IMG/VR virus record: IMGVR_UViG_3300042345_000884
Coordinates: 13,923-77,922 of that record
DNA from: a virus
Strand: one strand, 5' to 3'
Length of the DNA stretch: 64,000 nucleotides
In this document: positions 25,556 through 57,981 of the stretch, in pieces
Layout of the letters: every line of letters starts with the position of its first letter
How positions within the stretch are numbered: the first letter of the stretch is position 1
Made by a program: the position numbers and the translations under genes
The notes under the pieces: model-generated
The model's database searches: none
The model's input: the letters and a program-made list of their open reading frames with translations, nothing else
Told to the model about the DNA's origin: nothing

Positions 25556-26080
25556 CTAATATCCCCCCATTAACTCGATTTGTTCTTCTAGGGTAGAGTT
25601 CTCGCTCTCAAGCTTTTTGATTTGCTCTTTTAAGTCAAGTATCTCGTCAATATAGTCAACTTCTTTGTAGTCCAATTTTTCGATTTTGGCAGTTAATTCA
25701 GCAATTTGGCTATCAAGTCGCTTGTTAGTCTCAATTGCCTCACTTTTGACCTGAAAACCCGCTAATGTGTGAAGGAATAAGCGAACGCCCAACTGCATTA
25801 CTTTTAGGGCTAGTTCGTGATTGTCTTTAATTAGCCACTGGCAGATTAAATTTTCTGGTATCAATGCAACGGTTCGTAACCCACTTGCTGTCTCGATTTG
25901 AGCCTGTTCAAGACCTTTTTCACGCAAACCACTCATAGTCAAACGGCGAGAAACAGTCGAAGGTATTTTCCCTGACATCCGGGCATATCCACTAATTGAG
26001 GCAAAGCTCTCACCGGTCTGGGTATCGATGATTAACTCGATACCATCGTGATCAAAACGTTGTAAACTAGAAACAGCCAT
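25556..26080 (-). CDS. Antirepressor-like DNA-binding protein with coiled-coil tail
   Basis: LIIDTQTGESFASISGYARMSG...IETASGLRTVALI...GVRLFLH.LAGF. Confidence 0.65.
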   Translation of the reverse strand: MAVSSLQRFDHDGIELIIDTQTGESFASISGYARMSGKIPSTVSRRLTMSGLREKGLEQAQIETASGLRTVALIPENLICQWLIKDNHELALKVMQLGVRLFLHTLAGFQVKSEAIETNKRLDSQIAELTAKIEKLDYKEVDYIDEILDLKEQIKKLESENSTLEEQIELMGGY

Positions 26081-26102
26081 AATGACTCCTGATTAGTCTT
26101 AT

Positions 26103-26146
26103 TGGTTAGTCCCCCGTTAACGCGGGGGCATACCAATATTATACCG
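26103..26146 (-). promoter_or_regulatory. -10 box plus conserved 5' hairpin (copy 1)
   Basis: TATAAT-N6-ATGCCCCCG..CGGGGGACTAACCA. Confidence 0.75.
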
Positions 26147-26156
26147 TATTTAAAAT

Positions 26157-26396
26157 ATGCCTGACAAATTTGACCGATGTGGTGGGTATTCAGCAAAAAT
26201 TGACCGATTACCAGGTATTCCTCCTGATTTCAAGTCGAATGTCGTCAAACCACCACAATCCAGGGTTATTGTTTTACTGAAAACCGGAGAAGTCACAGGA
26301 ATTCCCGATGATCAGCTAGAGTCTTTCCTTGAGGAAAACCAAGATTTAATTCAAGATCGACAATCACCCAGAAAAAGACCGATTAGAAAACTTTAA
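26157..26396 (+). CDS. Hypothetical protein
   Basis: 79-aa ORF. Confidence 0.55.
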   Translation: MPDKFDRCGGYSAKIDRLPGIPPDFKSNVVKPPQSRVIVLLKTGEVTGIPDDQLESFLEENQDLIQDRQSPRKRPIRKL

Positions 26397-26400
26397 AGCA

Positions 26401-26694
26401 ATGACAAACACAGAAATCCTTGTTTTGCGGACTCTTTACAATAAAGAATTGTCGGGATTACAGACAATTCAATCTATAGCTGATATTAAAGGTAAAAGCC
26501 TTGATATTGGCTCATTTTACCCTGTATTCCAAAAGCTAGAGGAAAAAGAACTTATTAAATCCCGATGGGGAACTGAACGATCTAGCGATAGAGGCGGTGC
26601 TAGAAAAAGATACTATCGGCTCACCCGATCAGGAGAAAAAGCCCTTGCTGATATACAAGGATTTAATAATTCTCTTAACTGGGATTTTGTTTAA
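26401..26694 (+). CDS. PadR-family transcriptional regulator
   Basis: GSFYPVFQKLEEKELIKSRW...RKRYYRLTRSG. Confidence 0.9.
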   Translation: MTNTEILVLRTLYNKELSGLQTIQSIADIKGKSLDIGSFYPVFQKLEEKELIKSRWGTERSSDRGGARKRYYRLTRSGEKALADIQGFNNSLNWDFV

Positions 26695-26698
26695 TCAG

Positions 26699-26769
26699 TG
26701 TCGGGGATGGGAATTGAACCCACTGTTTCAAGCTTATGAGACTTGCGTGAACCGTTTTACTCCCCCGGC
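26699..26769 (-). tRNA. tRNA with CAT anticodon (Met or Ile2)
   Basis: GCCGGGG/CCCCGAC-A acceptor (one mismatch), CAAGT-CTCATAA-GCTTG anticodon arm, GTGGG-TTCAATT-CCCAT T arm; weak D arm; no CCA. Confidence 0.8.
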
Positions 26770-26789
26770 TTTATTATTGTATCACACTT

Positions 26790-26993
26790 TCAATCAATGC
26801 GATAAACAATTTCGTTAGGCTGTACTTCATACCTATCACAGATTGCCTGTAAAACTGCTATAGAAGGAAGCTGATCAGGATTTTGGGACAGTTTGTACCC
26901 CGTGGACATTGCGATGCCTGTTTGTTGAATGAATTTATAGACTGTGATCCCTCTTTCTTCCGTAAATTCCTTGACTCTGTTTTTTAGTACCAT
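26790..26993 (-). CDS. Cro/C1-type HTH repressor
   Basis: NRVKEF..RGITVY...TGIA..T.YKL...PS..VL..ICD.YEVQP.EI. Confidence 0.85.
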   Translation of the reverse strand: MVLKNRVKEFTEERGITVYKFIQQTGIAMSTGYKLSQNPDQLPSIAVLQAICDRYEVQPNEIVYRID

Positions 26994-27045
26994 TGTATTA
27001 GTTTTGTGTCTCTACAATTTATTATAACTTTTTTTAGAATAATGC

Positions 27046-27075
27046 TTGACAATATTACTGACTTCGCGGTAATAT
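27046..27075 (+). promoter_or_regulatory. Promoter with overlapping palindromic operator, divergent from the HTH repressor
   Basis: TTGACA then inverted repeat ATATTAC...GTAATAT covering the -10 TAATAT. Confidence 0.65.
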
Positions 27076-27155
27076 ACAGATATAGAGAAAGACGACCACC
27101 TCCAACTGCAAATTAGTGTGATCGCCTTTCCGTCAACCCTTATCAGGTCTAAGCC

Positions 27156-27602
27156 ATGATATCATCTAATTCTGCTTCTGTCAAAATCCCCATTATGTCC
27201 GGCAATTTTACTATGGTTGCCAAAGATCAAAAACATCGCGTATCCCTTGAAGTGTGGGGAAAAGGTCAGGTAACAACCCTCCGAGTCACTTGCCAGCAGA
27301 CTGGTAAAGAATGGTGGTTTGATGCACTCAACGGTAAATTGTGGCGCGGATTCGATCCTGATAAAAAAATCCCCAACTGCGAATTACCCGCAATCGAATT
27401 TATTACACCTGCGCGTCCTGCTCCTTCTCAATTACCTATTTCTTCTCGTAAATACGAAGATTGGGTAATGGTGGGCGGATGCCCATATCTGGTTCCTTCA
27501 AACGAACCCGACGACGATTTTATCTATGACGATGACGAACCGTCGGATTTAAGTCGGTACAGTGAGCCAGCAACCGACCCGATGACATGGCAAGAGTTTT
27601 AA
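27156..27602 (+). CDS. Hypothetical protein
   Basis: 148-aa ORF with acidic tail. Confidence 0.6.
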   Translation: MISSNSASVKIPIMSGNFTMVAKDQKHRVSLEVWGKGQVTTLRVTCQQTGKEWWFDALNGKLWRGFDPDKKIPNCELPAIEFITPARPAPSQLPISSRKYEDWVMVGGCPYLVPSNEPDDDFIYDDDEPSDLSRYSEPATDPMTWQEF

Positions 27603-27633
27603 AGTTATCAGTTATCAGTTGTCAGTTATCAGT
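27603..27633 (+). repeat. Heptamer run (CAGTTAT)n; further runs near 14429, 28430, 28730, 29110, 38740, 40090, 41515, 42117 and 42436
   Basis: Directly visible intergenic STRR-like runs. Confidence 0.85.
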
Positions 27634-27659
27634 TAGGCCGCTTTTCTAAAAGGAGAAAA

Positions 27660-27851
27660 ATGAACACTCGAATTGTCACAATTACGAAGGTTTCCAAAAA
27701 TAGTATCACCCATAATGAAGGCTTGTCTGCTAGTCCGAAATGGTTCCCCGGCGCAAAGGTAGGACAGCAGTGGCGTCTTACAACAGATGATGATGGCATG
27801 TATCCGCTAGGTGAAATCAAAGAAGCCGTGCTAATCAAGGAAGCGGACTAA
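27660..27851 (+). CDS. Hypothetical protein
   Basis: 63 aa with AGGAG RBS. Confidence 0.6.
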   Translation: MNTRIVTITKVSKNSITHNEGLSASPKWFPGAKVGQQWRLTTDDDGMYPLGEIKEAVLIKEAD

Positions 27852-27928
27852 CAAAGCGTGGAGCGGACGGGTGAAACTTTTCCCGTTATATCGGTTTTAT
27901 CTGTCCGCCGCTCACGCAAGCCGTTATC

Positions 27929-27991
27929 AGTACAAACGTTTAGAAATAATTCTCCCAAATACTTGACTTTATTGGGAGAATATCGTAAGAT
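27929..27991 (+). promoter_or_regulatory. 63-bp promoter/operator repeat, copy 1 of 6
   Basis: AGTACAAACGTT..TTCTCCCAA-atac-TTGACT-ttaTTGGGAGAA..TAAGAT. Confidence 0.85.
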
Positions 27992-28043
27992 GAGTCTAGA
28001 CAAGTAAAACAAGGAGATTAAGGAGATTAAGGAGATTAAGGTA

Positions 28044-28418
28044 ATGATTATTAACGCAACCCCCCATGTAATAACAATAGTTTCCAAAAAAGGAGTCGAG
28101 CAAGACTCCAAAAGACAGTTTCTTGCTGAAACCGTCGAAGTTGTCAAAGAAATCCCCCCGTCAGGGGTTCTTCCCCGTGTTTCCATGAGCAATTCCCCCG
28201 CAGGGGAAATTAACGGGATTCCTATTGAATCCGTCATTTATGGGGAGATCGAGGGACTCCCTGAGTATCAGAAGGATGTTTACTACATCGTCTCTGGATT
28301 AGTGGCTGCCGCGGCCGCTAAAGTAGGTCGTGTGGACTGCCTTGCTCCTGGCGCATTAGTCCGGGACAAAAATAACCCTGGGGTTATTTTAGGTTGTCTG
28401 TTTTTACAAAGACCTTAA
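28044..28418 (+). CDS. Conserved phage hypothetical protein
   Basis: INATPH...GLPE...YIVS..VA...R.D...PG..VRD pattern; preceded by (AAGGAGATT)x3. Confidence 0.7.
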   Translation: MIINATPHVITIVSKKGVEQDSKRQFLAETVEVVKEIPPSGVLPRVSMSNSPAGEINGIPIESVIYGEIEGLPEYQKDVYYIVSGLVAAAAAKVGRVDCLAPGALVRDKNNPGVILGCLFLQRP

Positions 28419-28471
28419 ATTGTCAGCATAGTTATCAGTTATCAGCTAACAACTTATTTAGGAGTAAAAAA

Positions 28472-28717
28472 ATGAAGGGTATTCGCATTGAAGGTATCTC
28501 TTTAAACGTAGGTAAAATCACGCTTTTTGTTAAACAAAAGCACATAATGACAGTTTTGACTGCTTATGAAAATGTATTGCCTTGTTCAGCATTTGAAAGC
28601 CTTGAACAATACTATGTAATGTTCTATCCTGATTTAAATCTGCCTCCGATTATTACGACATCTGAGTTGTCACCAGACATAAAGGAATGGATTTATACTG
28701 TTCTTAATACCTACTAA
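28472..28717 (+). CDS. Hypothetical protein
   Basis: AGGAG RBS. Confidence 0.55.
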   Translation: MKGIRIEGISLNVGKITLFVKQKHIMTVLTAYENVLPCSAFESLEQYYVMFYPDLNLPPIITTSELSPDIKEWIYTVLNTY

Positions 28718-28768
28718 TAGATAGTGGTCATCAGTTATCAGCTAACAACTTATTTAGGAGTAAAAAAA

Positions 28769-29107
28769 ATGAACAAACTAGAAAATCTTAGTAATTTTCA
28801 TGGCACGGAAAATTACTATACTAATCCCCTTTACCCGTTTGAGTACACCGACGGTATTAAATACTTAGTAGAAAATGGGGGAGGCTATTGGATACTTGAT
28901 GCAATTGCGTCATGGCAAAAAGAACTTGATTCAAGCCAGATTCAGTTCTGGATGCTAATAGTTAACTCCGATAAATCCGCAGTCCTTACCTGCGAACAAG
29001 ACAATGAATCTGCCATAAGTCAGCAGATCCCATTTACCGATTTTCCTCTTTCAGAGGTCACGCTTTGGTTGTGTGACGGTGTTTTATTGCTATCCTCTGA
29101 GTATTAG
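28769..29107 (+). CDS. DUF6876-like protein
   Basis: FHGTENYY, YTDGIKYL, YWILDAIAS, IPFTDFPL, LLLSSEY. Confidence 0.75.
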   Translation: MNKLENLSNFHGTENYYTNPLYPFEYTDGIKYLVENGGGYWILDAIASWQKELDSSQIQFWMLIVNSDKSAVLTCEQDNESAISQQIPFTDFPLSEVTLWLCDGVLLLSSEY

Positions 29108-29158
29108 TTTCAGTTATCAGTTATCAGTTATCAGTAAAAATAACTTAGGAGTAAAACA

Positions 29159-29656
29159 ATGACAATGATAGACATAGGACAATTCCCTAAAATTAACTCT
29201 GCACCGCAAGAGTTCGAGATAACCTGGTACAAAACAAAGTTAATTTATCCTTTTGAATACTCAGAAGGAATCCATTATTTTATCCAAAAAAAACAGGGAT
29301 GGATAGTTGATGAAATCGCTAAATGGGTAAAAGAAACTCATTTTAAGGAAGACTTTCCCTCAGTTATTGACTGGAAGTTAAAAGTAACCTATCAAAGCTT
29401 TAGAGATCGTATTCCGTGGGAGAATCCAAATCATTCATCTATATTAACGTGCAAAAATCGCCAAAATGCCACGTTTAAATTTGCATACATGACAGTATTT
29501 CCAAATACTAATATTGAGTTATATTACGACAGTGATCGTATAGATGAAGTTGACTTTTGTTTATTTGATATAGCCGACCCTTCTAAAACGGAATTAATGC
29601 TTGAAGAAGAATGGGTGTATTTACTTGGCGCCGCATCTTTCTTATTTGGTAGGTAA
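29159..29656 (+). CDS. Diverged paralog of the preceding DUF6876-like protein
   Basis: YPFEYSEGI..F....GWIVDEIA. Confidence 0.55.
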   Translation: MTMIDIGQFPKINSAPQEFEITWYKTKLIYPFEYSEGIHYFIQKKQGWIVDEIAKWVKETHFKEDFPSVIDWKLKVTYQSFRDRIPWENPNHSSILTCKNRQNATFKFAYMTVFPNTNIELYYDSDRIDEVDFCLFDIADPSKTELMLEEEWVYLLGAASFLFGR

Positions 29657-29675
29657 TCAAATGAGGAGTAAAACA

Positions 29676-30092
29676 ATGGAAGAATACATAGAAGAAATCG
29701 AAGAAACAATCGAAGAAGAAATTGAAGAAGATGAAGAAACAATCGAAGAAGAAATTGAAGAATGTATGTCTCCAAGCCATCGTCATTTTTGGCTTTGCTG
29801 GTATCAATTATCTCTTCTAGAGAAAAAGGTCTGTTTTTATTTTCTTTGTGGGTTTGATAACAAAGAAATTGCTAAAAAACTTTTACTAAAAACTGAAATA
29901 GTAAATGATTATACAACGGCAATTTTAAAAAAATTTAATATTTCGACTCAACCTAAGTTTATGTTCTTTTTCTATCAGCATACGGGATGGGATATAGCCA
30001 AAGATATGATTGACGATGACGAAGAAGAACAATGCGCTTTATGGGGTGTTCAAAAATGTCTAATTCCGCCTGGAATATGGAAAAATATGTAG
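29676..30092 (+). CDS. LuxR-type HTH protein with acidic N-terminus
   Basis: LSLLEKKV...GFDNKEIAKKL....V..Y...ILKKFNI. Confidence 0.7.
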   Translation: MEEYIEEIEETIEEEIEEDEETIEEEIEECMSPSHRHFWLCWYQLSLLEKKVCFYFLCGFDNKEIAKKLLLKTEIVNDYTTAILKKFNISTQPKFMFFFYQHTGWDIAKDMIDDDEEEQCALWGVQKCLIPPGIWKNM

Positions 30093-30106
30093 TTTAACGA
30101 AAATCT

Positions 30107-30385
30107 ATGACTAATACTATTGAGAATAAATATATGCCAGATTTTATCTCTCCACCAGGAGAAACCCTTGCCGAAATCCTAAAAGAAAGAAAAATAACTA
30201 GGGCTGAATTTGCTAATCGAATGGGGTTACATAAAAAAACTATCAATCAACTAATAAAAGGTAAAGCAGGAATTACTATTCGTATTGCTTACAAAATGGG
30301 ACTAGCTTTAGGCGTACCTACTGCTCATTTTTGGATAGAGCGCGAAAGACTTTACCGAGAATCTCTAGCAAATCAAATCGATTAG
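30107..30385 (+). CDS. HigA-like antitoxin HTH (orphan)
   Basis: PPGETLAEIL...FANRMG..KKTINQLIKGKAGIT...FW. Confidence 0.85.
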   Translation: MTNTIENKYMPDFISPPGETLAEILKERKITRAEFANRMGLHKKTINQLIKGKAGITIRIAYKMGLALGVPTAHFWIERERLYRESLANQID

Positions 30386-30414
30386 GAAATTTTTACAATT
30401 ATTAACGAGGATTT

Positions 30415-30621
30415 ATGAGCCTGTACCTAATTAAAGATTCAGTCACATCGTTTAGTCTTCTTATCGCAACAAAAGAATCAGAATCAGAATTAAAAGCAGA
30501 AACAGAAGCTATTTGGTATTGGAACAAATATTTTGGGAGTAAAAACAAGAATCCAATCGAAATAGAACGTGTCAATACTCCTGGTATAGTTTGGCATTGT
30601 GGACGGACTACTAGCGACTAA
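30415..30621 (+). CDS. Hypothetical protein
   Basis: 68 aa with GAGG RBS. Confidence 0.5.
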   Translation: MSLYLIKDSVTSFSLLIATKESESELKAETEAIWYWNKYFGSKNKNPIEIERVNTPGIVWHCGRTTSD

Positions 30622-36464: not shown

Positions 36465-36465
36465 T

Positions 36466-36495: not shown

Positions 36496-36504
36496 AGTTA
36501 ATAT

Positions 36505-36590
36505 CGTTAACAGATTGTTAGCAAGGGTATTGACAGTGGAAAGTATTGATATATATAAGTTTTATTGGTTTGTTATCTTTGTTAGCAGGT
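36505..36590. repeat. Degenerate single arm of the repeat family
   Basis: GATTGTTAG...GAAAGTATTGATATATATAAGTTT...TTTGTT. Confidence 0.6.
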
Positions 36591-36669
36591 TCCCTAATTC
36601 TCGTTTTTTCTGTGTCCAGATTCCCCAATACAGAAAATTCTGTATTGGGAGATAATTGATTATTTAAAG

Positions 36670-36714
36670 TGGTACAATACTAATATGCCCCTGCTCTAAA
36701 CAGGGGACTGACCA
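36670..36714 (+). promoter_or_regulatory. Extended -10 plus conserved 5' hairpin (copy 2)
   Basis: TGGTACAAT-N6-ATGCCCCTG..CAGGGGACTGACCA. Confidence 0.75.
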
Positions 36715-36737: not shown

Positions 36738-37469
36738 ATGGCTAATATTAGTTTACAGGAATTTGATCAAAATAGTGTAAATATTGTCCCGTTTCAGTTT
36801 AACACTCAAGAAATTCGAGTGACCCTGATTGACGGGAATCCGTGGTTTATCGGTAAAGATGTTTGCAATGTACTAGAAGTTAAGGACTCATCTACAGCGT
36901 ATTCTCGGTTAAAGGGCTACGAAAAGCTGACCCGGTTAATAACCGTGTCAGGTCAAAACCGAGAAATGGTAGTCGTTTCAGAGTCTGGACTCTACCGATT
37001 AGTTCTTACTAGCCGTAAGCCTCAATCAGAACCTTTTCAGGATTGGGTAGTACAGGAGGTTCTTCCTTCAATCCGAAAAACTGGAAGTTATTCCGTTTTA
37101 CAGTCAACAGAGAAGCTTGAGTGTCAAGTCGCCCAACTGACCAAAGACAACGAACGGCTAAGAAAACATTGCCTAAACTCAACACTTGCCTCTGTGGGAA
37201 TGATCAATGGGTTGAGAGAGACTCAAGAGTCGTTATTAGAATTAGTTGAGCTTCAAAAAGACAAGATTGCAGAACTTACTCTAGAGATATTGTGCTTAAA
37301 AGACTCAAACGAAATTCAATCGGGTAAGATTGCGAAGCTTTACAGCCGAGTCGCTTTGTTTGAACAAAGACTTCAAGACTACGAAAATATCGGATTAGCT
37401 TTTTCTGAACTGACGGCTAAATGTCAAGCGGAACGAGCGGAAGCAAATAAATACAAAAATCTGATCTAG
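36738..37469 (+). CDS. Bro-N domain antirepressor-like protein
   Basis: PWFIGKDVCNVL, SESGLYRLVLTSRKP...FQDWV..EVLPSIRKTGSY. Confidence 0.92.
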   Translation: MANISLQEFDQNSVNIVPFQFNTQEIRVTLIDGNPWFIGKDVCNVLEVKDSSTAYSRLKGYEKLTRLITVSGQNREMVVVSESGLYRLVLTSRKPQSEPFQDWVVQEVLPSIRKTGSYSVLQSTEKLECQVAQLTKDNERLRKHCLNSTLASVGMINGLRETQESLLELVELQKDKIAELTLEILCLKDSNEIQSGKIAKLYSRVALFEQRLQDYENIGLAFSELTAKCQAERAEANKYKNLI

Positions 37470-37487
37470 TAAAAATACCTAAACCCA

Positions 37488-37518
37488 AATAACCCCTATG
37501 GACTCATAGGGGTTATTT
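37488..37518 (+). terminator. Intrinsic terminator
   Basis: AATAACCCCTATG-gact-CATAGGGGTTATT. Confidence 0.75.
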
Positions 37519-37521
37519 TGC

Positions 37522-37965
37522 TAGTTTGTAATTAGACTGTAGATAAGATGATCAACAATGAAAAGCATTGATATATATAGTTTCTAGACTTTGTTTATAT
37601 TGTTACTCTATTTCCCCGTGTCAGGATTTTTTATCCTTCCTTATTGTCCAGTTCGTTTATCTCTCCCTATCTTTTCTCTCCCCTGTATAGGGCATCGACA
37701 AGATAAACAAACCTCGAAACCTATACCCTGCAAGACTTTCGATTGTAGATAAGGTTATTAACAATCGAATTACAATCTAACAGCCTTACTGCTGACCTTG
37801 CTTGTTTCTTTTGCAGTCTTTTTATTGTCCAGTCTGGTTTATTCTTTTGTTTTTCTTTTTTTCCTCTATAGTCCATCGACATTATCTACAAACCTTAAAA
37901 CCTATACTCTATAAGGCTTTTGATTGTCGATCACCCTATCTACAATCTATCTACAATAATAACGA
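37522..37965. repeat. Three arms of the repeat family (one forward, two reverse)
   Basis: Arms at about 37536-37625, 37690-37780 and 37870-37960, separated by pyrimidine tracts. Confidence 0.8.
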
Positions 37966-37977
37966 GTAAATATACTT

Positions 37978-38040
37978 AGTACAAGCGTTCAGAAATAATT
38001 CTCCCAATCTGTTGACTTTATTGGGAGAATCGGATATATT
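37978..38040 (+). promoter_or_regulatory. 63-bp promoter/operator repeat, copy 2
   Basis: TTCTCCCAA..TTGACT..TTGGGAGAA..TATATT. Confidence 0.85.
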
Positions 38041-38074
38041 AAAGATGTAAGCAAAACACGCAAGGATTAAGACG

Positions 38075-38287: not shown

Positions 38288-38371
38288 AGTAGGCTTCTTA
38301 TAAAATTGCAATTCTTATATTGCTGACTAAGCAATAAAAAAACACTTAACTAAGTTAAGTGTTTTTTTATT

Positions 38372-38434
38372 AGTACAAACGTTCAAAAAAGATTCTCCCA
38401 AATACTTGACTTTATTGGGAGAATGATCCATAAT
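38372..38434 (+). promoter_or_regulatory. 63-bp promoter/operator repeat, copy 3
   Basis: Same motif, -10 CATAAT; preceded by a terminator hairpin at 38335-38368. Confidence 0.85.
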
Positions 38435-38467
38435 AGAAATGTAAACAAAACACACAGAGAAAACAAA

Positions 38468-38725: not shown

Positions 38726-38751
38726 CCTAAAAATAGTAATCAGTTATCAGT

Positions 38752-38814
38752 AGTACAAACGTTCAAAAAAGATTCTCCCATATACTTGACATTTATGGGA
38801 GAATATCGTAAGAT
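38752..38814 (+). promoter_or_regulatory. 63-bp promoter/operator repeat, copy 4
   Basis: TTCTCCCATA..TTGACA..TATGGGAGAA..TAAGAT. Confidence 0.85.
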
Positions 38815-38853
38815 AAATCTAGACACATAATCAAAGTTTCAGGAGTTAAATAA

Positions 38854-39264: not shown

Positions 39265-39630
39265 ATGATCTTAATTATGTCTCTTAGATCGGAAGATTTT
39301 GAAGTTTTAAAATCTTCTGTTCAAAAAATCGACAATATCGACACTAACTTAAATCTTGTTAAATTACAAGATTATTCTCTATTGGGCATAACAAGAGTAG
39401 CCTTAATCTGTGATAAACAGCCTGAAATAAAAGGGATTAATTTCTCTGTAGAGATAAGTATCCCTGAAACTAGATACTGCGCCGCTTGTTTAGTTTTAGG
39501 TAAGTTTACGCCACTTACTATCCGTAACAGTTCTGGATACTGTCTAGAACATCGAGAACTTGATCCTAAGCGAAAACGGGATCGACACAAACGCTATAAG
39601 CAGAGACGTAGTACAAATGTTCAGAAATAA
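39265..39630 (+). CDS. Zn-finger hypothetical protein
   Basis: CAAC...GYCLEH, basic tail. Confidence 0.55.
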   Translation: MILIMSLRSEDFEVLKSSVQKIDNIDTNLNLVKLQDYSLLGITRVALICDKQPEIKGINFSVEISIPETRYCAACLVLGKFTPLTIRNSSGYCLEHRELDPKRKRDRHKRYKQRRSTNVQK

Positions 39631-39672
39631 TTCTCCCAAATACTTGACATTTCTGGGAGAATATCGTAAGAT
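39610..39672 (+). promoter_or_regulatory. 63-bp promoter/operator repeat, copy 5
   Basis: Same motif with TTGACA/TAAGAT. Confidence 0.85.
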
Positions 39673-39706
39673 AGAATCAAGCAAACAAACACAAGAGGAC
39701 AAAGTT

Positions 39707-40084: not shown

Positions 40085-40113
40085 ATACCAGTTGCCAGTT
40101 TCCAGTTATCAGT

Positions 40114-40176
40114 AGTACAAACGTTCAGAAATAATTAACCCAGATAGTTGACTTTATTGGGAGAATCGGATATATT
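40114..40176 (+). promoter_or_regulatory. 63-bp promoter/operator repeat, copy 6 (left half-site degenerate)
   Basis: AGTACAAACGTTCAG..TTGACT..TTGGGAGAA..TATATT. Confidence 0.8.
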
Positions 40177-40208
40177 AGAAATGTAACCAAACCACAAGGA
40201 CACAAATT

Positions 40209-41516
40209 ATGACTTCCATCAAATTTTACGAAAGATCGACAATTATTAAACGTATTGAGGACAATCTCAATGAAATTAACCGAAACTATTTCGAGGGAAA
40301 ACACGGAATATTATCAGTCACTAATAGCGGCGATTACGTTACGGTTAAAAATCGAGGTGTTTACTTAGCAGACTATGACACTCAAAAGCTTTTTGACGCA
40401 TTAGAAAACTTTGAAGATGATTACGAGCTTGCGCTTTCCTGCTATGATCTTTGGGATTATCTTGATAATTGTGAATACACACTTCCAGAAGATCAAAAGC
40501 TTCTTGTAAAACTTGAAGATTTACTTGATGAAATTGATTGTACATACTTTAGTCATTGCCGTTCAGAATTATTAATTGAGCAACAAAATGACGAAATAGT
40601 AAATATCCGTAAGAATGGCGAATGTTTATCATTCTTTATTCAACCGCTAGTTAGCAGCTTAGATAATATCGATACTGGTTTTTTTGATGATCTATGGGAT
40701 TATCTTGAGTATAAGTTTCTGTTTCACGCAGTAAAAACTGACAATGAATTAAAAACCAATGATGAGTTATCTTTTCCTGAAAAACGGCAAGTTGCGCTTG
40801 TCGATATGTTGTTAAGTGAACCTGTACCTATAACTGAATCTTCTGGTCTGGATGATTGGACTACCAGTTTAATACCCCACTCACAAACTATACATACCGA
40901 AGCCTCAACGCTAAAGGAATTAGTTGAGGAACTAGAACAAAAAAATGAAATTCTGGAGAAAAAAAATCAAGAATTAGAACAGAGCAAAGAATACAACGAA
41001 GCATGGATTGACAACTTAAAACAAAAAGTTCACGATTTAGAATGTGCGGTTTATCTGATGCAACAGGAAACAAATCAGATAGCAGTCTTAAACGAATCTG
41101 TTACTCAGTTACACATTCGTATCTACAAATTGGAACAGGAAAATAAGTAACTAAAAAATCAATCAGAGCCTCAACCAGAAACTAAACTAGAACCTAAACC
41201 GACAACTAAAAAGCGACCCAAATTTAAACTCCCCGAAAACTTTGCTGACTATCAGCAAGAGTGCGACGACTTAATTAATGCCTTGTCCTGTTTCTATAAC
41301 ATCAAAAAAGGTAAATGGAATGGGATTCTCCAATTTATCCTCACTCCTACCGCTTCTCAAAAAGAGAATTATCCTGACAAGTGGAGAGCAGGACTATATT
41401 TACAGCCAGGACAGTGGATAGTTGACAAAGTAAGTATGTCCGACCCTGATGACTGGCAAGAGTGGTTTATGGACATTGACGATTTTGCTGACGCTAACGG
41501 TATAGAGATTAGTTAG
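40209..41516 (+). pseudogene. Coiled-coil protein split by an in-frame TAA at 41148-41150
   Basis: Frame stays open from 41151 into the 41283-41516 ORF. Confidence 0.7.
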
Positions 41517-41583
41517 TTTCCAGTTATCAGTTATCAGTAGTCAGTTATCAGATATTAGTTGACAATTATTTAGGAGTAAAGCA

Positions 41584-42108
41584 ATGATTGAGATTGAAAT
41601 GGTAGAGATTCCTGATGCAACTTTTGCAATAGGTAAATATCCAGTGACTCAAAAACAATATGAAGCAGTAATGGGAACCAATCCCTCTTGGTTTAAAAAC
41701 AATCCCCAAAATCCAGTAGAAAATGTTAGCTATGATCAAGCTAAAGTTTTTTGCCAAAAACTAAGGAAGATGACTGGTAAAAATTATCGTTTACCAACGG
41801 AAGCAGAATGGGAATACGCCTGTCGGGCAGGGACTGAAACCCTATTTAGCTTTGGTGATGATTTATATAGGTTAGAAAGATTATGGTTGGTTGGATTGAA
41901 TTCTCAGAAGACAACTCATCCTGTGGGACGGAAATTACCTAACGCTTGGGGAATTTATGACATGAGTGGCAATGTCTGGGAAATGACTCAAGAAGCCAAG
42001 TTGCGGGGCGGTTCCAAGAACCGCGACCCTACTTATTGCTATTCTCGTTTTTATATCGTCAACACATTAGCAGAAAACATCGGTTTTCGAGTAGTTTGCG
42101 ACAAATAA
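41584..42108 (+). CDS. FGE-sulfatase (C-type-lectin fold) domain protein
   Basis: KYPVTQ, RLPTEAEWEYACRAG, PNAWGIYDMSGNVWE, RGGS, GFRVV. Confidence 0.92.
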   Translation: MIEIEMVEIPDATFAIGKYPVTQKQYEAVMGTNPSWFKNNPQNPVENVSYDQAKVFCQKLRKMTGKNYRLPTEAEWEYACRAGTETLFSFGDDLYRLERLWLVGLNSQKTTHPVGRKLPNAWGIYDMSGNVWEMTQEAKLRGGSKNRDPTYCYSRFYIVNTLAENIGFRVVCDK

Positions 42109-42479: not shown

Positions 42480-42710
42480 ATGTTTCACTTAAGCTTTGCA
42501 GAAAAAGATGAGAATGGCAATCCTAAAAATCAGACTTCTACTGTTGTGGCTATTATACGCGACAAGAATGGAAAGTGTAAAGAATATTCCCACAATATAA
42601 ATACAGAAGCTGATGTTACTGAAATTTTTGAATATTACAATCAAAGGGACGATTTATTGTATTTTGAAGCTATAGACGCTAAAACTGGTCAAACTATTAA
42701 ACTAAAGTAA
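42480..42710 (+). CDS. Hypothetical protein
   Basis: AGGAG RBS. Confidence 0.55.
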   Translation: MFHLSFAEKDENGNPKNQTSTVVAIIRDKNGKCKEYSHNINTEADVTEIFEYYNQRDDLLYFEAIDAKTGQTIKLK

Positions 42711-42729
42711 CAAGTTAACAGAGGTAATT

Positions 42730-43101
42730 ATGTTATCGTTTCAAGAGTTTCAAGAACAAGTTTTAAGTATGTTTGATGTAACCGAAAAAGATAAGTGTAA
42801 GTTTGCAAAAAATTGCATTTATTTTGGGGCAACTATTAGTTACGATAGCTATCAGGCGATAGTATTTGATGTAAAATATATCAAAAGTAACGGTCAGTGG
42901 CATATTCAAAAAATTTATACACAAGACTGTGAGGCTTTTTCGGATTCCTTGACTCAAGGAATCAAAACCATCGACAAACAAACCACAGACTCTATTAACG
43001 GTGAGTTACAAGTTTTCTTTAAAATTCAGAAAGGATGGAGAAAAGCTAAGTTCCAAGAGTTGTTTGAGTCTTTCAATGAATTAATAGAAGCAAAAAAATA
43101 A
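42730..43101 (+). CDS. Hypothetical protein
   Basis: GAGG RBS. Confidence 0.55.
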   Translation: MLSFQEFQEQVLSMFDVTEKDKCKFAKNCIYFGATISYDSYQAIVFDVKYIKSNGQWHIQKIYTQDCEAFSDSLTQGIKTIDKQTTDSINGELQVFFKIQKGWRKAKFQELFESFNELIEAKK

Positions 43102-43110
43102 GCAGGAGTA

Positions 43111-43608
43111 GTGATGATTAGATTTTACTGGAATGATAAATTAGTGTCTCGCCACGAGACAGAAGCAGAAGCTTTTGAACAAGGATTCAAATATTTGCAT
43201 CAACATCCTGCATCGCCTGATTTTAAGGGTATGCCTCATAGACAGTGTTCATTTGTGGACACAACAGAGATTGACTGGTGGAAACGTTCAAAAATCCTTT
43301 TTGAACGTTTTACTGATTGGATTTGGTATAAACGGTATTCTGATAGTAGAGGTGTACTTATAGACATGAAGCGTATCCTTTCAGAAATAAAAAGAAAAGG
43401 GTATTTATCTTTAGACGATATAAATCAACTAACAGAGGTTGACCCAGATTTCTTGCGTAGCTTTGCAAAGTGCTATAAACTAACTCTAGAAGAGGTAAAA
43501 GTGTTAGCATCTAAAAGAGAAGTAACGTTTAACATGGTTTTTGAGTACATAGAAATTCGTTATTCGGCATTAGCGTATTGGTTACGCAAATCAAAAATCA
43601 CTCCTTAA
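43111..43608 (+). CDS. Hypothetical protein (MIxxYW family)
   Basis: MIRFYWNDKLVSRH. Confidence 0.6.
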   Translation: MMIRFYWNDKLVSRHETEAEAFEQGFKYLHQHPASPDFKGMPHRQCSFVDTTEIDWWKRSKILFERFTDWIWYKRYSDSRGVLIDMKRILSEIKRKGYLSLDDINQLTEVDPDFLRSFAKCYKLTLEEVKVLASKREVTFNMVFEYIEIRYSALAYWLRKSKITP

Positions 43609-43665
43609 AACTAATAAAAATAAATTGTTATAATAGCTGTAAGTTATCCTTACAGCTATTTTTTA

Positions 43666-44064
43666 ATGATCAACTGGAATCTAGGAAGACAATTAGCGAT
43701 TGAGTCTTTTAATGAGATGACGGACGAATTTGCCCAAGAAATTAACTTTCAGATAGAAGATACTAAATGGCCTTGGCCGCGGGAAACCGAGCGAAAAAAT
43801 AATACTGTAGTTGGCTCACCTCGGGACATTGTAGATACAGGTGAGCTAAAAAATAGCCAATTTATTGAAGATGTATCTGATACCTATAAAGTAATCGGTT
43901 ATACGGCTGAACACGCACCTCTCGTTCATGAGGGATACGAAATAGAGCGTAACGATGGAACGGTGACAGATATTCCCGCCCGTCCTTTTATAGACACAGC
44001 TATAGAAGACTATAATCCAATTGAGGCTTATAGTGAAATTTTAAAGGGAAAATTAAATGAGTGA
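43666..44064 (+). CDS. HK97 gp10-like tail completion protein
   Basis: RDIVDTGELKNS...VHEG...PARPFI. Confidence 0.8.
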   Translation: MINWNLGRQLAIESFNEMTDEFAQEINFQIEDTKWPWPRETERKNNTVVGSPRDIVDTGELKNSQFIEDVSDTYKVIGYTAEHAPLVHEGYEIERNDGTVTDIPARPFIDTAIEDYNPIEAYSEILKGKLNE

Positions 44065-44506
44065 ATCAGAATTAAGAGATATTTTACTCGGTATTAGAAA
44101 TAATTTAAAAATACTTATTGGTACTGACTTAGGTAAATATGAAATAACAAGCCCTACAGGGCAAAAATTAAATGAAATAGACGCTATCTGGGTAGAGCCT
44201 CCCGAACTACCCGCTAACTATAAAGTAAAGCTTAATAGTGGAATTGAGGTAATTATTCAGAGGGAACCCGACCCCTATCACGAAAACCTATTAGGCTATA
44301 CCGTAGGTATAAATAACTATTGTATTACTTTAAAACAGTATAATCTAGAGAAATCTCTAACGCCGGTAATCGAAAGACTTAAATCTTCTCGCTACTGGAA
44401 TTTTCTAGATCAGCCCCGACTAACCCCCTACACCAAAACTTCTGAGGGAATCATTAGACCAAAAGCGACCTTTAAAATCACTACTGCTAGGCTTTTAGGA
44501 TTTTAG
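44057..44506 (+). CDS. Tail terminator protein (putative)
   Basis: Size and position between the gp10-like and tail tube genes. Confidence 0.55.
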   Translation: MSESELRDILLGIRNNLKILIGTDLGKYEITSPTGQKLNEIDAIWVEPPELPANYKVKLNSGIEVIIQREPDPYHENLLGYTVGINNYCITLKQYNLEKSLTPVIERLKSSRYWNFLDQPRLTPYTKTSEGIIRPKATFKITTARLLGF

Positions 44507-56087: not shown

Positions 56088-56490
56088 TCGGATTGTTACC
56101 GAGGCTCTTGAGTGGCTCGGTACTCCCTGGTTTCACGGTCAATCCCTCAAAGGTATTGGAACCGATTGCGTAGGATTTATCGCCGGTGTGGGGATTAAAG
56201 TCGGATTCTTGCCCCATGGTTTTATCCTTGAGAACTATGAACGGATTCCTCGGAAAGGCTCATTAGTCAAATTCCTTGATCGTCTATTAGATAGAGTTGA
56301 AGGTGATTTATGCAAAGGGGATGTCTTAATGTTTCACAAATCAGGAGTAGATGGTCATGTAGGCATCTATTTGGGAGATTGGGAGTATATTCACGCTGAC
56401 TCAATAAATGGCGTGATCAAGACCTATATTCATGAATACCCGCCTGTACTGGTTTATCGAGTACCTGTTTCGGGAGTGGTAAAATCATAG
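56056..56490 (+). CDS. NlpC/P60 tail-associated peptidase
   Basis: WLGTPW.H......G.DC.GF, GDVL.F, HVGIY...IHA. Confidence 0.9.
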   Translation: MNEPKNDSLGNRIVTEALEWLGTPWFHGQSLKGIGTDCVGFIAGVGIKVGFLPHGFILENYERIPRKGSLVKFLDRLLDRVEGDLCKGDVLMFHKSGVDGHVGIYLGDWEYIHADSINGVIKTYIHEYPPVLVYRVPVSGVVKS

Positions 56491-56508
56491 AAAATTACCA
56501 TAACTTCG

Positions 56509-56802
56509 ATGAGAAAGATTATTTTAAGCTTATTGTTTTTAGGAATGATGCCTACCGTGGCACTGTCTCTTGATAACCAGACTCAAGAGATACTTGAGAA
56601 AAGAACTTGTCAGTATTTCAAGTCTGGACTGACACTAGGAGAAACCACAGTGGCGATCAGATATGCTGTGAATCAAAACGGAAGGCCAAGGTCGGAATAT
56701 GAAGGTGTCAATATACTCATAGACGAATTTAACAGGCTTATGACAGAGAAAATCCTTGCCAACGCTAAAAACAGATGTCCAGAGTTTTTTCCTCGTAACT
56801 AA
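56509..56802 (+). CDS. Small secreted protein
   Basis: Signal peptide, two Cys, C-terminal CPEF. Confidence 0.6.
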   Translation: MRKIILSLLFLGMMPTVALSLDNQTQEILEKRTCQYFKSGLTLGETTVAIRYAVNQNGRPRSEYEGVNILIDEFNRLMTEKILANAKNRCPEFFPRN

Positions 56803-56819
56803 GAGGCGATACCGTGGGT

Positions 56820-57080
56820 AGATTGTAACCAGATTGTTAATAACCCTATCTACAATCGAAACCTTTAGCCTATAAAGGTTCTAGACTTTGTAGATGCCGT
56901 TGATGCTCTATACAGGGAAAAAAGAAAATAGGGTAAAGGGGGAAGACAGTCTCAACAGTAAGACATAAAAAAATAATATCAGGGGATAGTGTCAACAGTA
57001 TCAACAAAGTCTAGAAGCTATATATATCAAGGATTCCATTGTAGATACCTTTATCTACAATCTATTTACAATAATAACAG
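56820..57080. repeat. Complete inverted-arm element (about 250 bp)
   Basis: Left arm nearly identical to 24696-24755; right arm matches 25285-25345; purine-rich spacer. Confidence 0.85.
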
Positions 57081-57183
57081 CGACTGCCAGTACAGGACAC
57101 TAAAAAAGAGAGGGGATTATCTTAATCTCCTCTCCCTGGCTATTTCTCTCTACTCACTAGAATCGTCAAGCAACTATTCAAAA

Positions 57184-57229
57184 TGGTACAATTATAGTAA
57201 TGCCCCCGTTAGTAGCGGGGGACTAACCA
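57184..57229 (+). promoter_or_regulatory. Extended -10 plus conserved 5' hairpin (copy 3)
   Basis: TGGTACAAT-N7-ATGCCCCCG..CGGGGGACTAACCA. Confidence 0.75.
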
Positions 57230-57252
57230 CATTACCTGAATAAGAGGCCAAT

Positions 57253-57981
57253 ATGGCTATTGAAATAGTATCACAGAATGATTGTCTTGTCGTTGATTCT
57301 CGTTTGATTGCCTTAGAATTGGGGATTGAACACCGCGCTTTAATGCAAACAGTCAAGAAATATTTAACAGAAATTCAAGAATTTGGAACTCTCGCATTTG
57401 AAATGCGAGAGTTCAAAACGGCTCAGGGTAACACTTCCAAAGAGACTTACTGTTACCTAAATGAAGAGCAGGCAACTTTTTTAATGACGCTTTCTCGAAA
57501 TACTTCGCAGGTCATTGCTTGTAAGCGCAACTTAGTTAAGGCATTTACTCAAGCAAAACAAATTATCAAAGAAGTAATCCCCGCCCAAAGTGGACGTATT
57601 CGGGAATTAGAACTTGAGCTAGAACTGACAAAAGCCAAAACCTATTATATGGATCGGCGTGACGCAATTCGACTGATTCATGGCGCTGAGGTTTTAGCTT
57701 TGCTAGATGGCCGTCCAGATATTGTGATCGAGAAGATTGAAAAAGTCACTGAGACAATTATCTGTAAAAACGGACGGAATGTCAGTTTTGAGGGTCGCTC
57801 TACTGCCGAATTAGGAAAAGAGTTAGGATTCAAGTCTGGAAAAGAGTTAGAACGTTGGCTAGAGAAAACCGGTCATTCTCATCTAGTGTGTCAAGGGTTG
57901 CGAATCAATCAAGCGTCTTATATCCCCACCGAAAATCTTAAGGAAGTTAAGCAGCTTTTTTCTAAAGTCAGAAACCGTTAG
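57253..57981 (+). CDS. Rha-family phage regulatory protein
   Basis: VVDSRLIA..LGIEH...LNEEQATFLMT...K..LVKAF. Confidence 0.88.
   Translation: MAIEIVSQNDCLVVDSRLIALELGIEHRALMQTVKKYLTEIQEFGTLAFEMREFKTAQGNTSKETYCYLNEEQATFLMTLSRNTSQVIACKRNLVKAFTQAKQIIKEVIPAQSGRIRELELELELTKAKTYYMDRRDAIRLIHGAEVLALLDGRPDIVIEKIEKVTETIICKNGRNVSFEGRSTAELGKELGFKSGKELERWLEKTGHSHLVCQGLRINQASYIPTENLKEVKQLFSKVRNR

Follow-up and report, generated by a model that had tools for sequence, protein, structure and literature searches.

The window analysed here is the whole 64,000-nucleotide stretch (positions 13,923 to 77,922) of virus record IMGVR_UViG_3300042345_000884. It comes from a 78 kb Microcystis-infecting phage whose likeness to T4-like phages is confined to the N domain of the terminase. 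No integrase or ParAB gene was found among the ~45 ORFs tested with Pfam or PHROGs, and no lysogeny genes were found among the ORFs tested in this phage. Three genes in the window carry the same short leader, and each lies near a cluster of arm repeats. The features of the three loci are listed by position.

24678–25373, no strand: four-unit arm cluster 1, lying downstream of cassette 1.
25471–25491, minus strand: terminator of cassette 1, a 9-bp stem, then TTTTTATTAT.
25556–26080, minus strand: g1, 174 aa; the N-terminus has a predicted Bro-N/KilA-N-like fold and the C-terminus is a coiled coil.
26063–26068, plus strand: candidate antisense −10 box of cassette 1 (TAAACT, opposite g1, CDS nt 18→13); a lead only.
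26103–26131, minus strand: leader 1, with ATG, CCCCCG (26128–26123), loop CGTTAA, CGGGGG (26116–26111) and tail ACTAACCA (26110–26103).
26138–26167, minus strand: cassette 1 promoter, TTGTCA, 18-nt spacer, TATAAT (11/12 matches in the promoter scan).
26157–26694, plus strand: ORF79 and a PadR-family regulator (PadR gene 26401–26694; Pfam PadR 7e-12), divergent from g1.
36671–36678, plus strand: cassette 2 −10 region, GGTACAAT, with a T upstream that gives an extended TG-N-TACAAT.
36685–36714, plus strand: leader 2, with ATG, CCCCTG (36688–36693), loop CTCTAAA, CAGGGG (36701–36706) and tail ACTGACCA.
36738–37469, plus strand: Bro-N protein, 243 aa, Pfam Bro-N (PF02498) 8e-21.
36750–36755 and 57265–57270, minus strand: equivalent candidate antisense boxes of cassettes 2 and 3; a lead only.
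37487–37518, plus strand: terminal hairpin of cassette 2, a 14-bp stem with the tail UUAUUUUG partly within the stem (−19.8 kcal/mol, z −4.9).
37518–37963, no strand: three-unit arm cluster 2, lying downstream of cassette 2.
56815–57078, no strand: arm cluster 3, a convergent pair of units lying upstream of cassette 3.
57163–57192, plus strand: cassette 3 promoter, TCGTCA, 18-nt spacer, TACAAT, with TG upstream.
57200–57229, plus strand: leader 3, with ATG, CCCCCG (57203–57208), loop TTAGTAG, CGGGGG (57216–57221) and tail ACTAACCA.
57253–57981, plus strand: Rha-family protein, 242 aa, Pfam Phage_pRha (PF09669) 2e-13.
58001–58036, plus strand: terminal hairpin of cassette 3, a 16-bp stem (−21.8 kcal/mol, z −9.2).

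The leader reads [-10 box]-N6/7-ATG-CCCC(C/T)G-loop-C(G/A)GGGG-ACT(A/G)ACCA, followed by 22–23 nt (22, 23 and 23 nt for copies 1, 2 and 3) and ATGGCT. The copies span 26145→26103 (−), 36671–36714 (+) and 57185–57229 (+). An earlier note on this DNA had described a common leader before three genes, and this was borne out, as the whole 77,922-bp genome holds exactly these three copies and no others. Three copies per genome is far above chance: ATGCCCCYG occurred three times in the window against 0.22 expected, and GGTAYAAT-N5-8-ATGCCCC three times against zero expected. The hairpins of copies 1, 2 and 3 folded at −12.6, −10.5 and −14.1 kcal/mol, and copy 2 does differ at stem pair 5, with T-A in place of C-G. 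For cassette 2 there was no clear −35 element, and the two-hexamer scan made no call. Each copy sits before one monocistronic gene that ends at a hairpin; of these three terminal hairpins, only that of cassette 1 has a textbook U-tract.

The products of cassettes 2 and 3 were assigned by Pfam. The gene at 36738–37469 scored 74.9 bits for Bro-N (gathering cut-off 25.6) and 1e-47 for the PHROG anti-repressor Ant, and the gene at 57253–57981 scored 51.4 bits for Phage_pRha (gathering cut-off 29.9). No Pfam or PHROG domain matched g1, which gave only coiled-coil noise. Its AF2 model (pLDDT 71, moderate) was compared with BFVD using Foldseek and matched Bro-N domain proteins (E 3e-4 to 1e-2, probability up to 1.0), along with viral entries annotated as KilA, Ant N-terminal and "repressor domain"; the predicted fold of g1 resembles Bro-N/KilA-N proteins. 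VIA-align of the model against the PDB matched the C-terminal coiled coil only and was uninformative on the N-domain. The three genes had been called non-homologous. They are mutually non-alignable, save for the first 13–17 residues of g1 and the Bro-N protein, but the structural matches of the g1 model qualify the term for that gene.

Approximately 95 further copies of the leader were found in ~70 Microcystis-type phage contigs from IMG/VR and metagenomes. The motif did not occur before arbitrary genes, a pattern that would have spoken against the proposed cassette: ~94 of the 95 copies precede a Bro-N, Rha or g1-type gene or one with a fourth N-terminal type, and the one remaining hairpin stands between Rha and RusA within a tandem array (G006). 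Five near-complete relatives each carry two to three copies, without exception at these three loci, and, for g1, the leader is present in 56/56 relatives. Homologues in two isolated phages, Anabaena phage A-4L (g1, 31% identity) and Aphanizomenon phage CL131 (Rha, 47% identity), lack it. A scan of genome contigs for the hairpin and tail gave, among the matches listed, only chance matches in GC-rich bacteria, a result that carries no information on host genomes, and a promoter-anchored scan (GAAACTTTCNG..TATAAT..GCC) gave mostly chance matches. An Rfam search returned only two tRNAs and no leader family, sar (RF00262) included, with the window searched at the gathering threshold and three relatives at E ≤ 0.1.

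An arm cluster does lie within about 200 bp of each cassette gene, as first described: 183 bp separate the g1 stop from 25373, 49 bp the Bro-N gene stop from 37518, and 85 bp position 57078 from the Rha −35 element. There is also a partial arm unit at 36500–36600, upstream of cassette 2. This association breaks in relatives. In one (G005) the cassette is cleanly deleted and the arms are kept, in another (G002) the arms are deleted and a cassette remnant is kept, and distant leader-bearing phages have no arm motif within 1.5 kb. The cassette–arm link is local synteny only, and the idea that the cassette proteins regulate the neighbouring arms found no support. Pairing by eye of the leader tail with a putative arm small RNA gave only 5–7-nt matches. 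Contigs from RNA libraries do not cover most arm units, although such contigs drop short RNAs, so absence is not implied.

The stem varies among copies in ways that keep it paired. The majority form is CCCCCG/CGGGGG; CCCTCG/CGAGGG occurs in 23 copies and CCCCTG/CAGGGG in this window, and the stem is preserved via two compensatory changes and U·G intermediates, with 98.9% and 100% of stem cells paired. In distant phages, where another promoter precedes it, the stem has been rebuilt at the same site (GACTCCCTT/AAGGGGAGTC, CCCCCTAG/CTAGGAGG and CCCCCGG/CCGGAGG), and imperfect stems cluster ahead of truncated 105-aa genes. The gap from the −10 box to the stem stays at 6–13 nt over at least eight promoter contexts. 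Loops are free in sequence and length (5–7 nt), and two distinct stems can occur within a single phage (L017, L294).

These patterns bear on whether the element acts as DNA. The GC palindrome over +1 could be an operator bound by a dimeric repressor, for example PadR, that co-represses the three cassettes. It overlaps the predicted start site in all three promoters, the symmetric change in copy 2 preserves the dyad, and the PadR-family gene is head-to-head with g1 throughout the close relatives (the ATG of the divergent ORF79/PadR pair is 12 nt from the g1 −10 box). However, the spacer (5–7 nt) and arm length (6–9 bp) vary, arm sequences differ within one genome (the window, L017, L294) with half-site changes unlike those expected of a single repressor, and two 100%-complete leader-bearing relatives have no PadR gene. 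Loop freedom and coexisting stems argue against a sequence-specific dimer operator, and we consider this explanation very unlikely.

Selection on RNA structure, which had been proposed from the covarying stem, is favoured by the two compensatory pairs, the U·G intermediates and the rebuilt stems. The covariation statistics are modest: within close relatives there is one double-changed pair per alignment, and 5/500 and 45/500 shuffles reach the observed score. Sense-strand U·G pairs occur in three lineages, and sense-strand C·A, equivalent to antisense G·U, in two or three (L255/L294a, L362/L368). The wobble/mismatch asymmetry neither favours the sense strand nor tells which strand folds. In addition, repeated loop inversions among leaders indicate that the palindrome undergoes template switching at the DNA level, which can also make "compensatory" changes without selection. 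Selection on structure is only partly sustained.

Comparisons among related phages show that the cassettes are self-contained and exchange their payloads by recombination. A type 1 promoter and hairpin was found joined to a type 2 leader and gene; such mosaics have their junctions within the leader, where the hairpin and tail lie. At locus 2, relatives hold a g1 paralogue in place of Bro-N. At locus 3, the Rha N-terminus is replaced in a relative by an unrelated N-terminal domain, with the C-terminal 147 aa 90% identical. The mosaic leaders, the locus 2 replacement and the locus 3 domain swap support the proposed cassette architecture with a swappable DNA-binding payload. Cassettes have also been gained and lost. 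The tandem array of G006 contains two cassettes flanked by three hairpin elements, the last before RusA, and the loop flips between the two cassettes (ATCGCAT vs. ATGCGAT).

The closest published analogue is the PeSL (promoter-early stem-loop) cassette of T4-type phages (Arbiol et al. 2010, PMC2839356; Comeau et al. 2014, PMC4122927). Both elements join a strong sigma-70-type promoter and a stem-loop of G/C runs before the SD and ATG in one conserved motif, and one PeSL subclass has the stem-loop downstream of the −10 box, as here. In both, several copies flank variable genes, and recombination between copies, seen here as mosaic junctions, payload replacement, clean deletion and the tandem array, explains insertions, deletions and replacements among close relatives. 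For PeSL, crossover points have been located in the stem-loop and within its loop (PMC2839356; PMC4122927). The systems differ in that PeSLs lie in hyperplastic regions of T4-type myoviruses among diverse, assorted ORFans, whereas the leader has only two to four copies per genome, serves one protein class and occurs in siphovirus-like Microcystis phages and a provirus. In the leader stem, moreover, the C-run comes before the G-run, an additional tail is conserved, and the conserved stretch reaches the first codons. The sense strand has no U-tract downstream of the hairpin, so a terminator role of the PeSL type is doubtful here, and a sense-strand intrinsic terminator or attenuator was rejected on the same ground. 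The earlier statement that this is not a described system is fair for the leader element, but the PeSL cassettes come close to it (PMC2839356).

An alternative is that the hairpin has no regulatory role and simply travels with the cassettes as a recombination linker, a PeSL- or attC-like cassette boundary or a weak transcriptional insulator. Junctions at the hairpin and tail, loop flips even within one genome, the three flanking elements of the G006 array and the PeSL precedent (PMC2839356) all fit, as do the terminators of cassettes 1 and 2, which resemble the leader stem (CCCCTGTAG.., CCCCTAT..), and an ACTAACC that adjoins terminator 1. Against this, stems of other sequence have been rebuilt at this position in distant phages, something that recombination driven by homology would not by itself call for; stem decay coincides with gene truncation; and the spacing to the −10 box is tight. 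We regard a linker with no regulatory role as quite unlikely.

We tentatively favour, at a little short of even confidence, a portable expression cassette of the PeSL kind, with a hairpin that works at the RNA level at the predicted 5′ end of the mRNA. The cassette consists of a sigma-70-type promoter, a GC-rich hairpin 6–13 nt past the −10 box, a short single-stranded tail (ACUNAYYA), ~15 variable nt, a Shine-Dalgarno sequence, AUG-GCU, one Bro-N/KilA-N/Rha-type DNA-binding gene and a closing hairpin. Its distance from the −10 box would put the first hairpin right at the 5′ terminus of the predicted transcript. On the sense transcript this stem-loop may shield a short monocistronic mRNA from 5′-end-dependent decay and keep the downstream ribosome-binding site unstructured, which would give all payloads the same expression behaviour; common post-transcriptional control of the cassette genes is plausible. 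At the DNA level, the conserved block of promoter, hairpin and tail, together with the first six codons and the C-terminal halves that proteins have in common, would serve as homology patches, at which recombination would swap payloads among cassettes and phages, as with PeSL in T4-type phages.

Stem-loops at the 5′ terminus are established mRNA stabilisers according to work listed in PMC3997798 (Emory, Bouvet & Belasco 1992 and related papers). The ompA, papA and aprE stabilisers, as cited there, likewise have a stable hairpin near the 5′ end, an unstructured leader and a ribosome-binding site; they are single-gene elements with measured half-lives, whereas the leader here is shared and mobile and its 5′ end is predicted. 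Among RNA-library contigs of two studies there is coverage of both g1 and Bro: one contig begins at 36703, within the 3′ stem arm, and another runs from ~24 nt upstream of the Bro ATG through to the terminator; contig ends are not 5′ ends. Decay machinery in cyanobacterial hosts differs (RNase E, RNase J). In the G006 array a hairpin also stands at the 3′ side of the preceding gene, which speaks against a strictly 5′-terminal reading, and the stabiliser model leaves the conserved tail and the invariant CDS nt 13–18 unexplained. Two other roles were rejected: a lambda nut/boxB-type antitermination site, as loops are free in sequence and even inverted, and a tRNA-minihelix mimic suggested by the ACCA end of the tail, as the variants ACTCATCA and ACTAAACA lack CCA.

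A further possibility, which can coexist with the 5′-hairpin model, is that a sar-like cis-antisense RNA silences translation of each cassette gene. An opposite-strand −10 at CDS nt 18→13 would give a ~60-nt RNA from approximately nt +6, running back across the AUG, Shine-Dalgarno sequence and tail and ending at the palindromic hairpin; at locus 1, transcription would run on into the divergent ORF79-PadR operon as a face-to-face promoter switch. The P22 sar RNA is a precedent for control of this kind. ANNNTA occurs at CDS nt 13–18 in 9/10 distinct cassette gene starts, including non-homologous N-termini, compared to 2/66 other genes (antisense TANNNT forms TAAACT, TAAAAT, TACTAT and TACAAT). 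Among 23 unique g1/Bro starts, nt 13 and 15–18 are invariant while codons 2–4 are hypervariable and later codons vary synonymously, and an invariant A occupies the predicted +1. Leaders of the GAAACTTTCAG promoter class have CAUUUUUAUUAU after the hairpin on the antisense strand, and the C·A mismatches noted above would be antisense G·U pairs. With the PadR or ORF79 start codon 25–28 nt away from the hairpin, the promoter of that gene has to overlap the g1 leader. Conversely, there is no −35 element and the promoter scan calls none there, the antisense tails in the window (CAUACCAA, CAUAUUAG, CAUUACUA) are poor U-tracts, the wobbles of three lineages favour the sense strand, and Rfam gave no match, even to sar. 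Residues 5–6 open the first beta-strand of the g1 model, so protein constraint and AT-rich codon bias could explain ANNNTA. We consider the antisense RNA a weighty rival, though on the unlikely side. The loop as a −35 of the PadR promoter (TTAACG..TATTAT) was rejected for its 14-nt spacer, and a tRNA-Met divergent from the leader (L017, L255, L294), which has its own TATAAT 7 nt upstream, lends the antisense promoter no support.

The P22 immI (Pant-arc-sar-ant) and P1/P7 c4-icd-ant regions also place an antirepressor-class gene under RNA-level leader control, which is putative here. In P22, sar is a short antisense RNA on the ribosome-binding site that ends in a hairpin, an arrangement possible in our cassettes; the phages described here differ in having no sequence or Rfam match to these systems, an antisense promoter that is only a candidate, and three dispersed copies with different payloads. 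In 2002 Iyer, Koonin and Aravind reportedly described how KilA-N, Bro-N, Rha and Ant-type phage regulators shuffle their domains. Here too, unrelated N-terminal DNA-binding domains swap on shared C-terminal modules; the difference is that swapping occurs between near-identical phages, with one crossover point in a shared non-coding leader. A joint reading, unlikely as a whole, would make one hairpin both the 5′ cap-hairpin of the sense mRNA and the terminator of a ~60-nt antisense RNA with its −10 in codons 5–6, in a mobile cassette devoted to RNA control that is an integron- or PeSL-like in-frame docking site for KilA-N/Bro-N/Rha domains, with a PadR face-to-face switch at one locus.

Blooms of Microcystis are a serious threat to water quality, and next to nothing is known of how their phages are regulated. 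The leader marks a small regulon of DNA-binding proteins conserved in several phage lineages and a provirus, with domain-level payload swapping caught in progress among near-identical phages. At 45 nt, and with natural compensatory variants, it is a compact and experimentally tractable handle. If the hairpin turns out to be a stabiliser of 5′ ends in general or the terminator of an antisense RNA, it could be a portable expression part for cyanobacteria and would be a siphovirus/cyanophage counterpart to the PeSL regulatory motifs that double as recombination sites.

Three antirepressor-type genes in the window are each preceded by a common leader, consisting of a promoter −10 box, an ATG, a C-run/G-run hairpin and an ACT(A/G)ACCA tail. 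The cassettes are as follows:

25556–26080, minus strand, g1 (locus 1)
36738–37469, plus strand, Bro-N (locus 2)
57253–57981, plus strand, Rha (locus 3)

The three leader copies described in the earlier note, each with a promoter, a hairpin and about 23 nt to ATGGCT, were borne out. ATGCCCCYG occurred three times in the window versus 0.22 expected, and three times together with a GGTAYAAT box versus 0 expected; the other 13.9 kb of the 77,922-bp genome held no additional leader copy. Aligned, the leaders comprise a TATAAT or TACAAT box (with upstream TG in two of three), 6–7 nt, ATG, a 6-bp C-run/G-run stem enclosing a 6–7-nt loop, ACT(A/G)ACCA, and 22–23 nt with an SD before ATGGCT. A consensus promoter scan called two of the three promoters (TTGTCA-18-TATAAT, and TCGTCA-18-TACAAT with TG), and the leader hairpins had folding energies of −10.5 to −14.1 kcal/mol. 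As had been noted, a strong hairpin ends each gene, being present 3' of all three. The products are Bro-N, Rha and a 174-aa protein (g1) without a Pfam domain, and they could not be aligned with one another except over the first 13–17 residues of g1 and Bro-N. Their description as non-homologous held for alignment, but needs qualifying for g1 in the light of its predicted structure. The AlphaFold model of g1 (pLDDT 71), in which a beta-beta-beta-alpha-alpha-beta-beta-alpha N-domain precedes a coiled coil, matched Bro-N, KilA and 'repressor domain' proteins in BFVD, and because of these matches g1 is read as a putative remote member of the Bro-N/KilA fold class.

In cassettes 1 and 2 the terminators (25471–25491 and 37487–37518) look like the leader stem (CCCCTGTAG..CTACAGGGG and CCCCTAT..ATAGGGG). 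An ACTAACC tail motif directly adjoins terminator 1 (25491–25497), which may be chance or a relic of hairpin-to-hairpin recombination; ACTAACC was found 10 times in the window versus 6.7 expected. Just 5' of the Rha promoter lies a hairpin, GAGAGGGGATT..AATCTCCTCTC (57105–57137), preceded by AAAAAA. Read on the minus strand it is a hairpin plus UUUUUU, which could stop antisense transcription running out of the Rha cassette, and it is still present in the related record G005 despite deletion of the cassette there. Just 3' of the same cassette, three perfect or near-perfect 51-nt tandem repeats (58280–58432) lie inside an ORF at 58272–58754.

The window comes from one virus record of 77,922 bp with 36.6% G+C, and megablast returned short matches only, all to Microcystis phages. 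ORFs named by domain or profile included a large terminase, ribonucleotide reductase, thymidylate-synthase-like protein, DNA methylase, DUF3987 primase-like protein, helicase, baseplate proteins, NlpC/P60 peptidase and an ORF of 3,119 aa. Tests of ~45 ORFs turned up no integrase or partition gene, and the majority of ORFs were orphans. An odd cargo within the structural region was a formylglycine-generating-enzyme-like (FGE-sulfatase) domain (4e-31) in a 174-aa ORF at 41584–42108. The phage also encodes tRNAs at 26699–26769 (minus strand) and 63769–63850 (plus strand). Summed RNA-contig depth rose to 22,000 on GTTATCAG heptamer tracts (27168–27834, 28502–29168 and 41175–41841), probably because host or other genomes carry this repeat too; ATCAGTT repeats have been reported for Mic1 and Microcystis NIES-843 (PMC7156551). 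The leader promoters are not the only repeated class: another, separate one carries GTAC-N4-GTTC (LexA-box-like) 5' of a −35 element, TTGACT, which lies within a TTCTCCCAA..TTGGGAGAA hairpin. The six copies of this second class are at:

27921–28020
37970–38069
38364–38463
38744–38843
39602–39701
40106–40205

Pattern and protein scans of IMG/VR, together with one metagenome scan, yielded ~95 leader copies in ~70 contigs of 35–48% G+C. Five near-complete relatives carried two or three copies apiece, solely at the same three loci. Placement of the motif before arbitrary genes, named in the earlier note as grounds for refutation, was looked for and was not the case: all copies but one stand ahead of a single gene class, made up of g1-type genes (several sub-types, 172–281 aa), Bro-N, Rha and a fourth type (MAIDIVPFSQS...). 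The lone exception is in G006, a 63-kb record of IMG/VR class provirus, where promoter-hairpin-Bro-N and promoter-hairpin-Rha follow in tandem without terminators between them (42500–44200; L351/L354); a third leader-type hairpin lies between the Rha stop and a RusA-like resolvase gene, 5 nt ahead of the latter. The distant phages L004, L017, L030, L255, L294, L362 and L368 have another promoter, GAAACTTTCRG..TATAAT or TAAAAT, and in them too a hairpin stands at that spacing from its −10 box, ahead of a related tail and a gene of the one class. The leader is absent from isolated phages with homologous proteins, A-4L (g1) and CL131 (Rha), and is therefore a trait of the Microcystis-type lineages examined, not of the protein families. 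A tRNA-Met is divergent from the leader cassette in L017 (5290–5360), L255 (3422–3492) and L294 (4473–4543), where a palindromic element resembling CAGAAACTTTCTG, set between two opposed TATAAT boxes, is common to both.

In close relatives the stem was mostly CCCCCG/CGGGGG, with 23 cases of CCCTCG/CGAGGG, CCCCTG/CAGGGG as window copy 2, and U·G intermediates (CCCTCG/CGGGGG and CTCCCG/CGGGGG). Paired cells reached 98.9% and 100% in two gap-free alignments versus 33–73% for slid partners; a double change occurred at one pair only per alignment, and shuffle controls were modest (5/500 and 45/500). Stems of the distant phages were rebuilt from other sequences (GACTCCCTT..AAGGGGAGTC, CCCCCTAG..CTAGGAGG, CCCCCGG..CCGGAGG), which points to hairpin selection more strongly than the alignment statistics do. 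The few damaged stems were located ahead of genes cut to 105 aa. Loops were unconstrained and repeatedly inverted (GTACTAA/TTAGTAC, GTACCAA/TTGGTAC, TTGACG/CGTCAA and ATCGCAT/ATGCGAT, the last between adjacent cassettes within one genome). Loop inversion is known to mark template switching in DNA hairpins, and because template switching can itself generate symmetric changes, covariation in the leader stem proves RNA selection less well than it usually would. Wobble asymmetry favoured the sense strand in three lineages and the antisense strand in two or three, which leaves the strand unsettled. The earlier attribution of stem covariation to RNA selection is partly supported by its compensatory pairs and rebuilt stems, and is tempered by the shuffles, template switching and strand. 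A purely DNA-level linker role for the hairpin is a less likely possibility.

A cassette with a swappable DNA-binding payload, as previously proposed, agrees well with mosaic leaders, replacement at locus 2 and an N-terminal swap at locus 3. The locus-1-type promoter and hairpin were found fused to the locus-2-type post-hairpin leader and gene start, and also to a third leader type. One rebuilt hairpin stands ahead of Rha in L017 and of the fourth gene type in L294, and two different hairpins precede the same Rha gene. Most relatives have a g1 paralogue (49% identity) at locus 2 versus Bro-N in this phage, whose Bro-N protein carries a 13-residue g1-like stub before the canonical Bro-N start. 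At locus 3, some relatives combine a C-terminal half 90% identical to that of the Rha protein here with 100 N-terminal residues that are unrelated. G005 has cleanly lost the −10 box, hairpin and Rha gene and has kept the arms (repeat clusters beside the cassettes), −35 box and terminator; another relative, G002, has lost arms and leader and keeps a 215-nt Rha remnant. Three copies of a short iteron (TATGAGCC..), different from the tandem AATGTTCGGAGCTT repeat of the window, occupy the site of the lost arms and leader in G002. Metatranscriptome contigs from two studies cover the g1 and Bro-N genes. One begins at 36703, inside the 3' arm (the second stem half of leader 2), and another runs from just past the hairpin to the terminator; contigs are not proof of transcript ends, and these fit monocistronic units.

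The arm clusters lie 49–183 bp from the cassettes, in keeping with the roughly 200 bp first described:

24678–25373, arm cluster 1
37518–37963, arm cluster 2
56815–57078, arm cluster 3

Their ten units, laid out in convergent pairs, have a common direct and inverted repeat (ATTGTAGATAG, TTGTAGATA-N6-TATCTACAA) plus a TTGATATATATAG box and TCTAGACTTTGTTGATATTGT, and look like operator-promoter units. Arms and cassettes stay adjacent only in syntenic close relatives; G002 and G005 break the pattern, and arms are absent around the leaders of the distant phages; no sign supported the suggestion that cassette proteins regulate neighbouring arms. Arms and cassettes both seem to gather at genome module boundaries. 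The stretch from the g1 terminator to arm cluster 1 contains four tandem AATGTTCGGAGCTT copies (25385–25460, minus strand; L342, a related contig, 2580–2650).

In no fewer than eight promoter contexts the first stem base falls 6–13 nt past the −10 hexamer, a spacing that would place the hairpin at the extreme 5' end of the predicted mRNA. Classical 5' stabilisers are built in this way (references in PMC3997798), and a 5'-terminal hairpin stabiliser is our preferred, if tentative, reading. A sense-strand terminator is unlikely given the lack of a U-tract, as is a boxB-like protein site given that loops are free in sequence. Recognition of the leader palindrome as a dimer operator is likewise unlikely: its arms vary in length and sequence and its spacer in length, even inside one genome, and the PadR regulator gene, head-to-head with g1 here (26401–26694, plus strand), is missing from two complete leader-bearing relatives. 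A less probable but serious rival to the stabiliser, with which it may coexist, is a cis-antisense (sar-like) RNA started opposite the early CDS. ANNNTA occupies CDS nt 13–18 in nine of ten distinct cassette gene starts versus 2 of 66 other genes, these positions being invariant and the adjacent codons variable; the opposite strand thus reads TANNNT, and seven nt downstream of it an A is invariant. On the antisense strand of one promoter class, CAUUUUUAUUAU comes after the hairpin, and the PadR operon (ORF79 and PadR) requires a promoter in exactly the early-CDS/leader region. However, the putative antisense promoter has no −35 element, U-tails are weak in this window, and ANNNTA conservation could be explained at the protein level.

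Among published systems the nearest is the PeSL cassette of T4-type phages, in which a conserved promoter and G/C stem-loop motif flanks variable genes and mediates their shuffling (PMC2839356). The leader element is like PeSL in architecture and evolution, and differs in phage type, in its narrower cargo and probably in terminator function. The earlier note did not recognise a described system here, and we concur: the leader is real and conserved, has apparently not been described before, and offers clear experimental handles.
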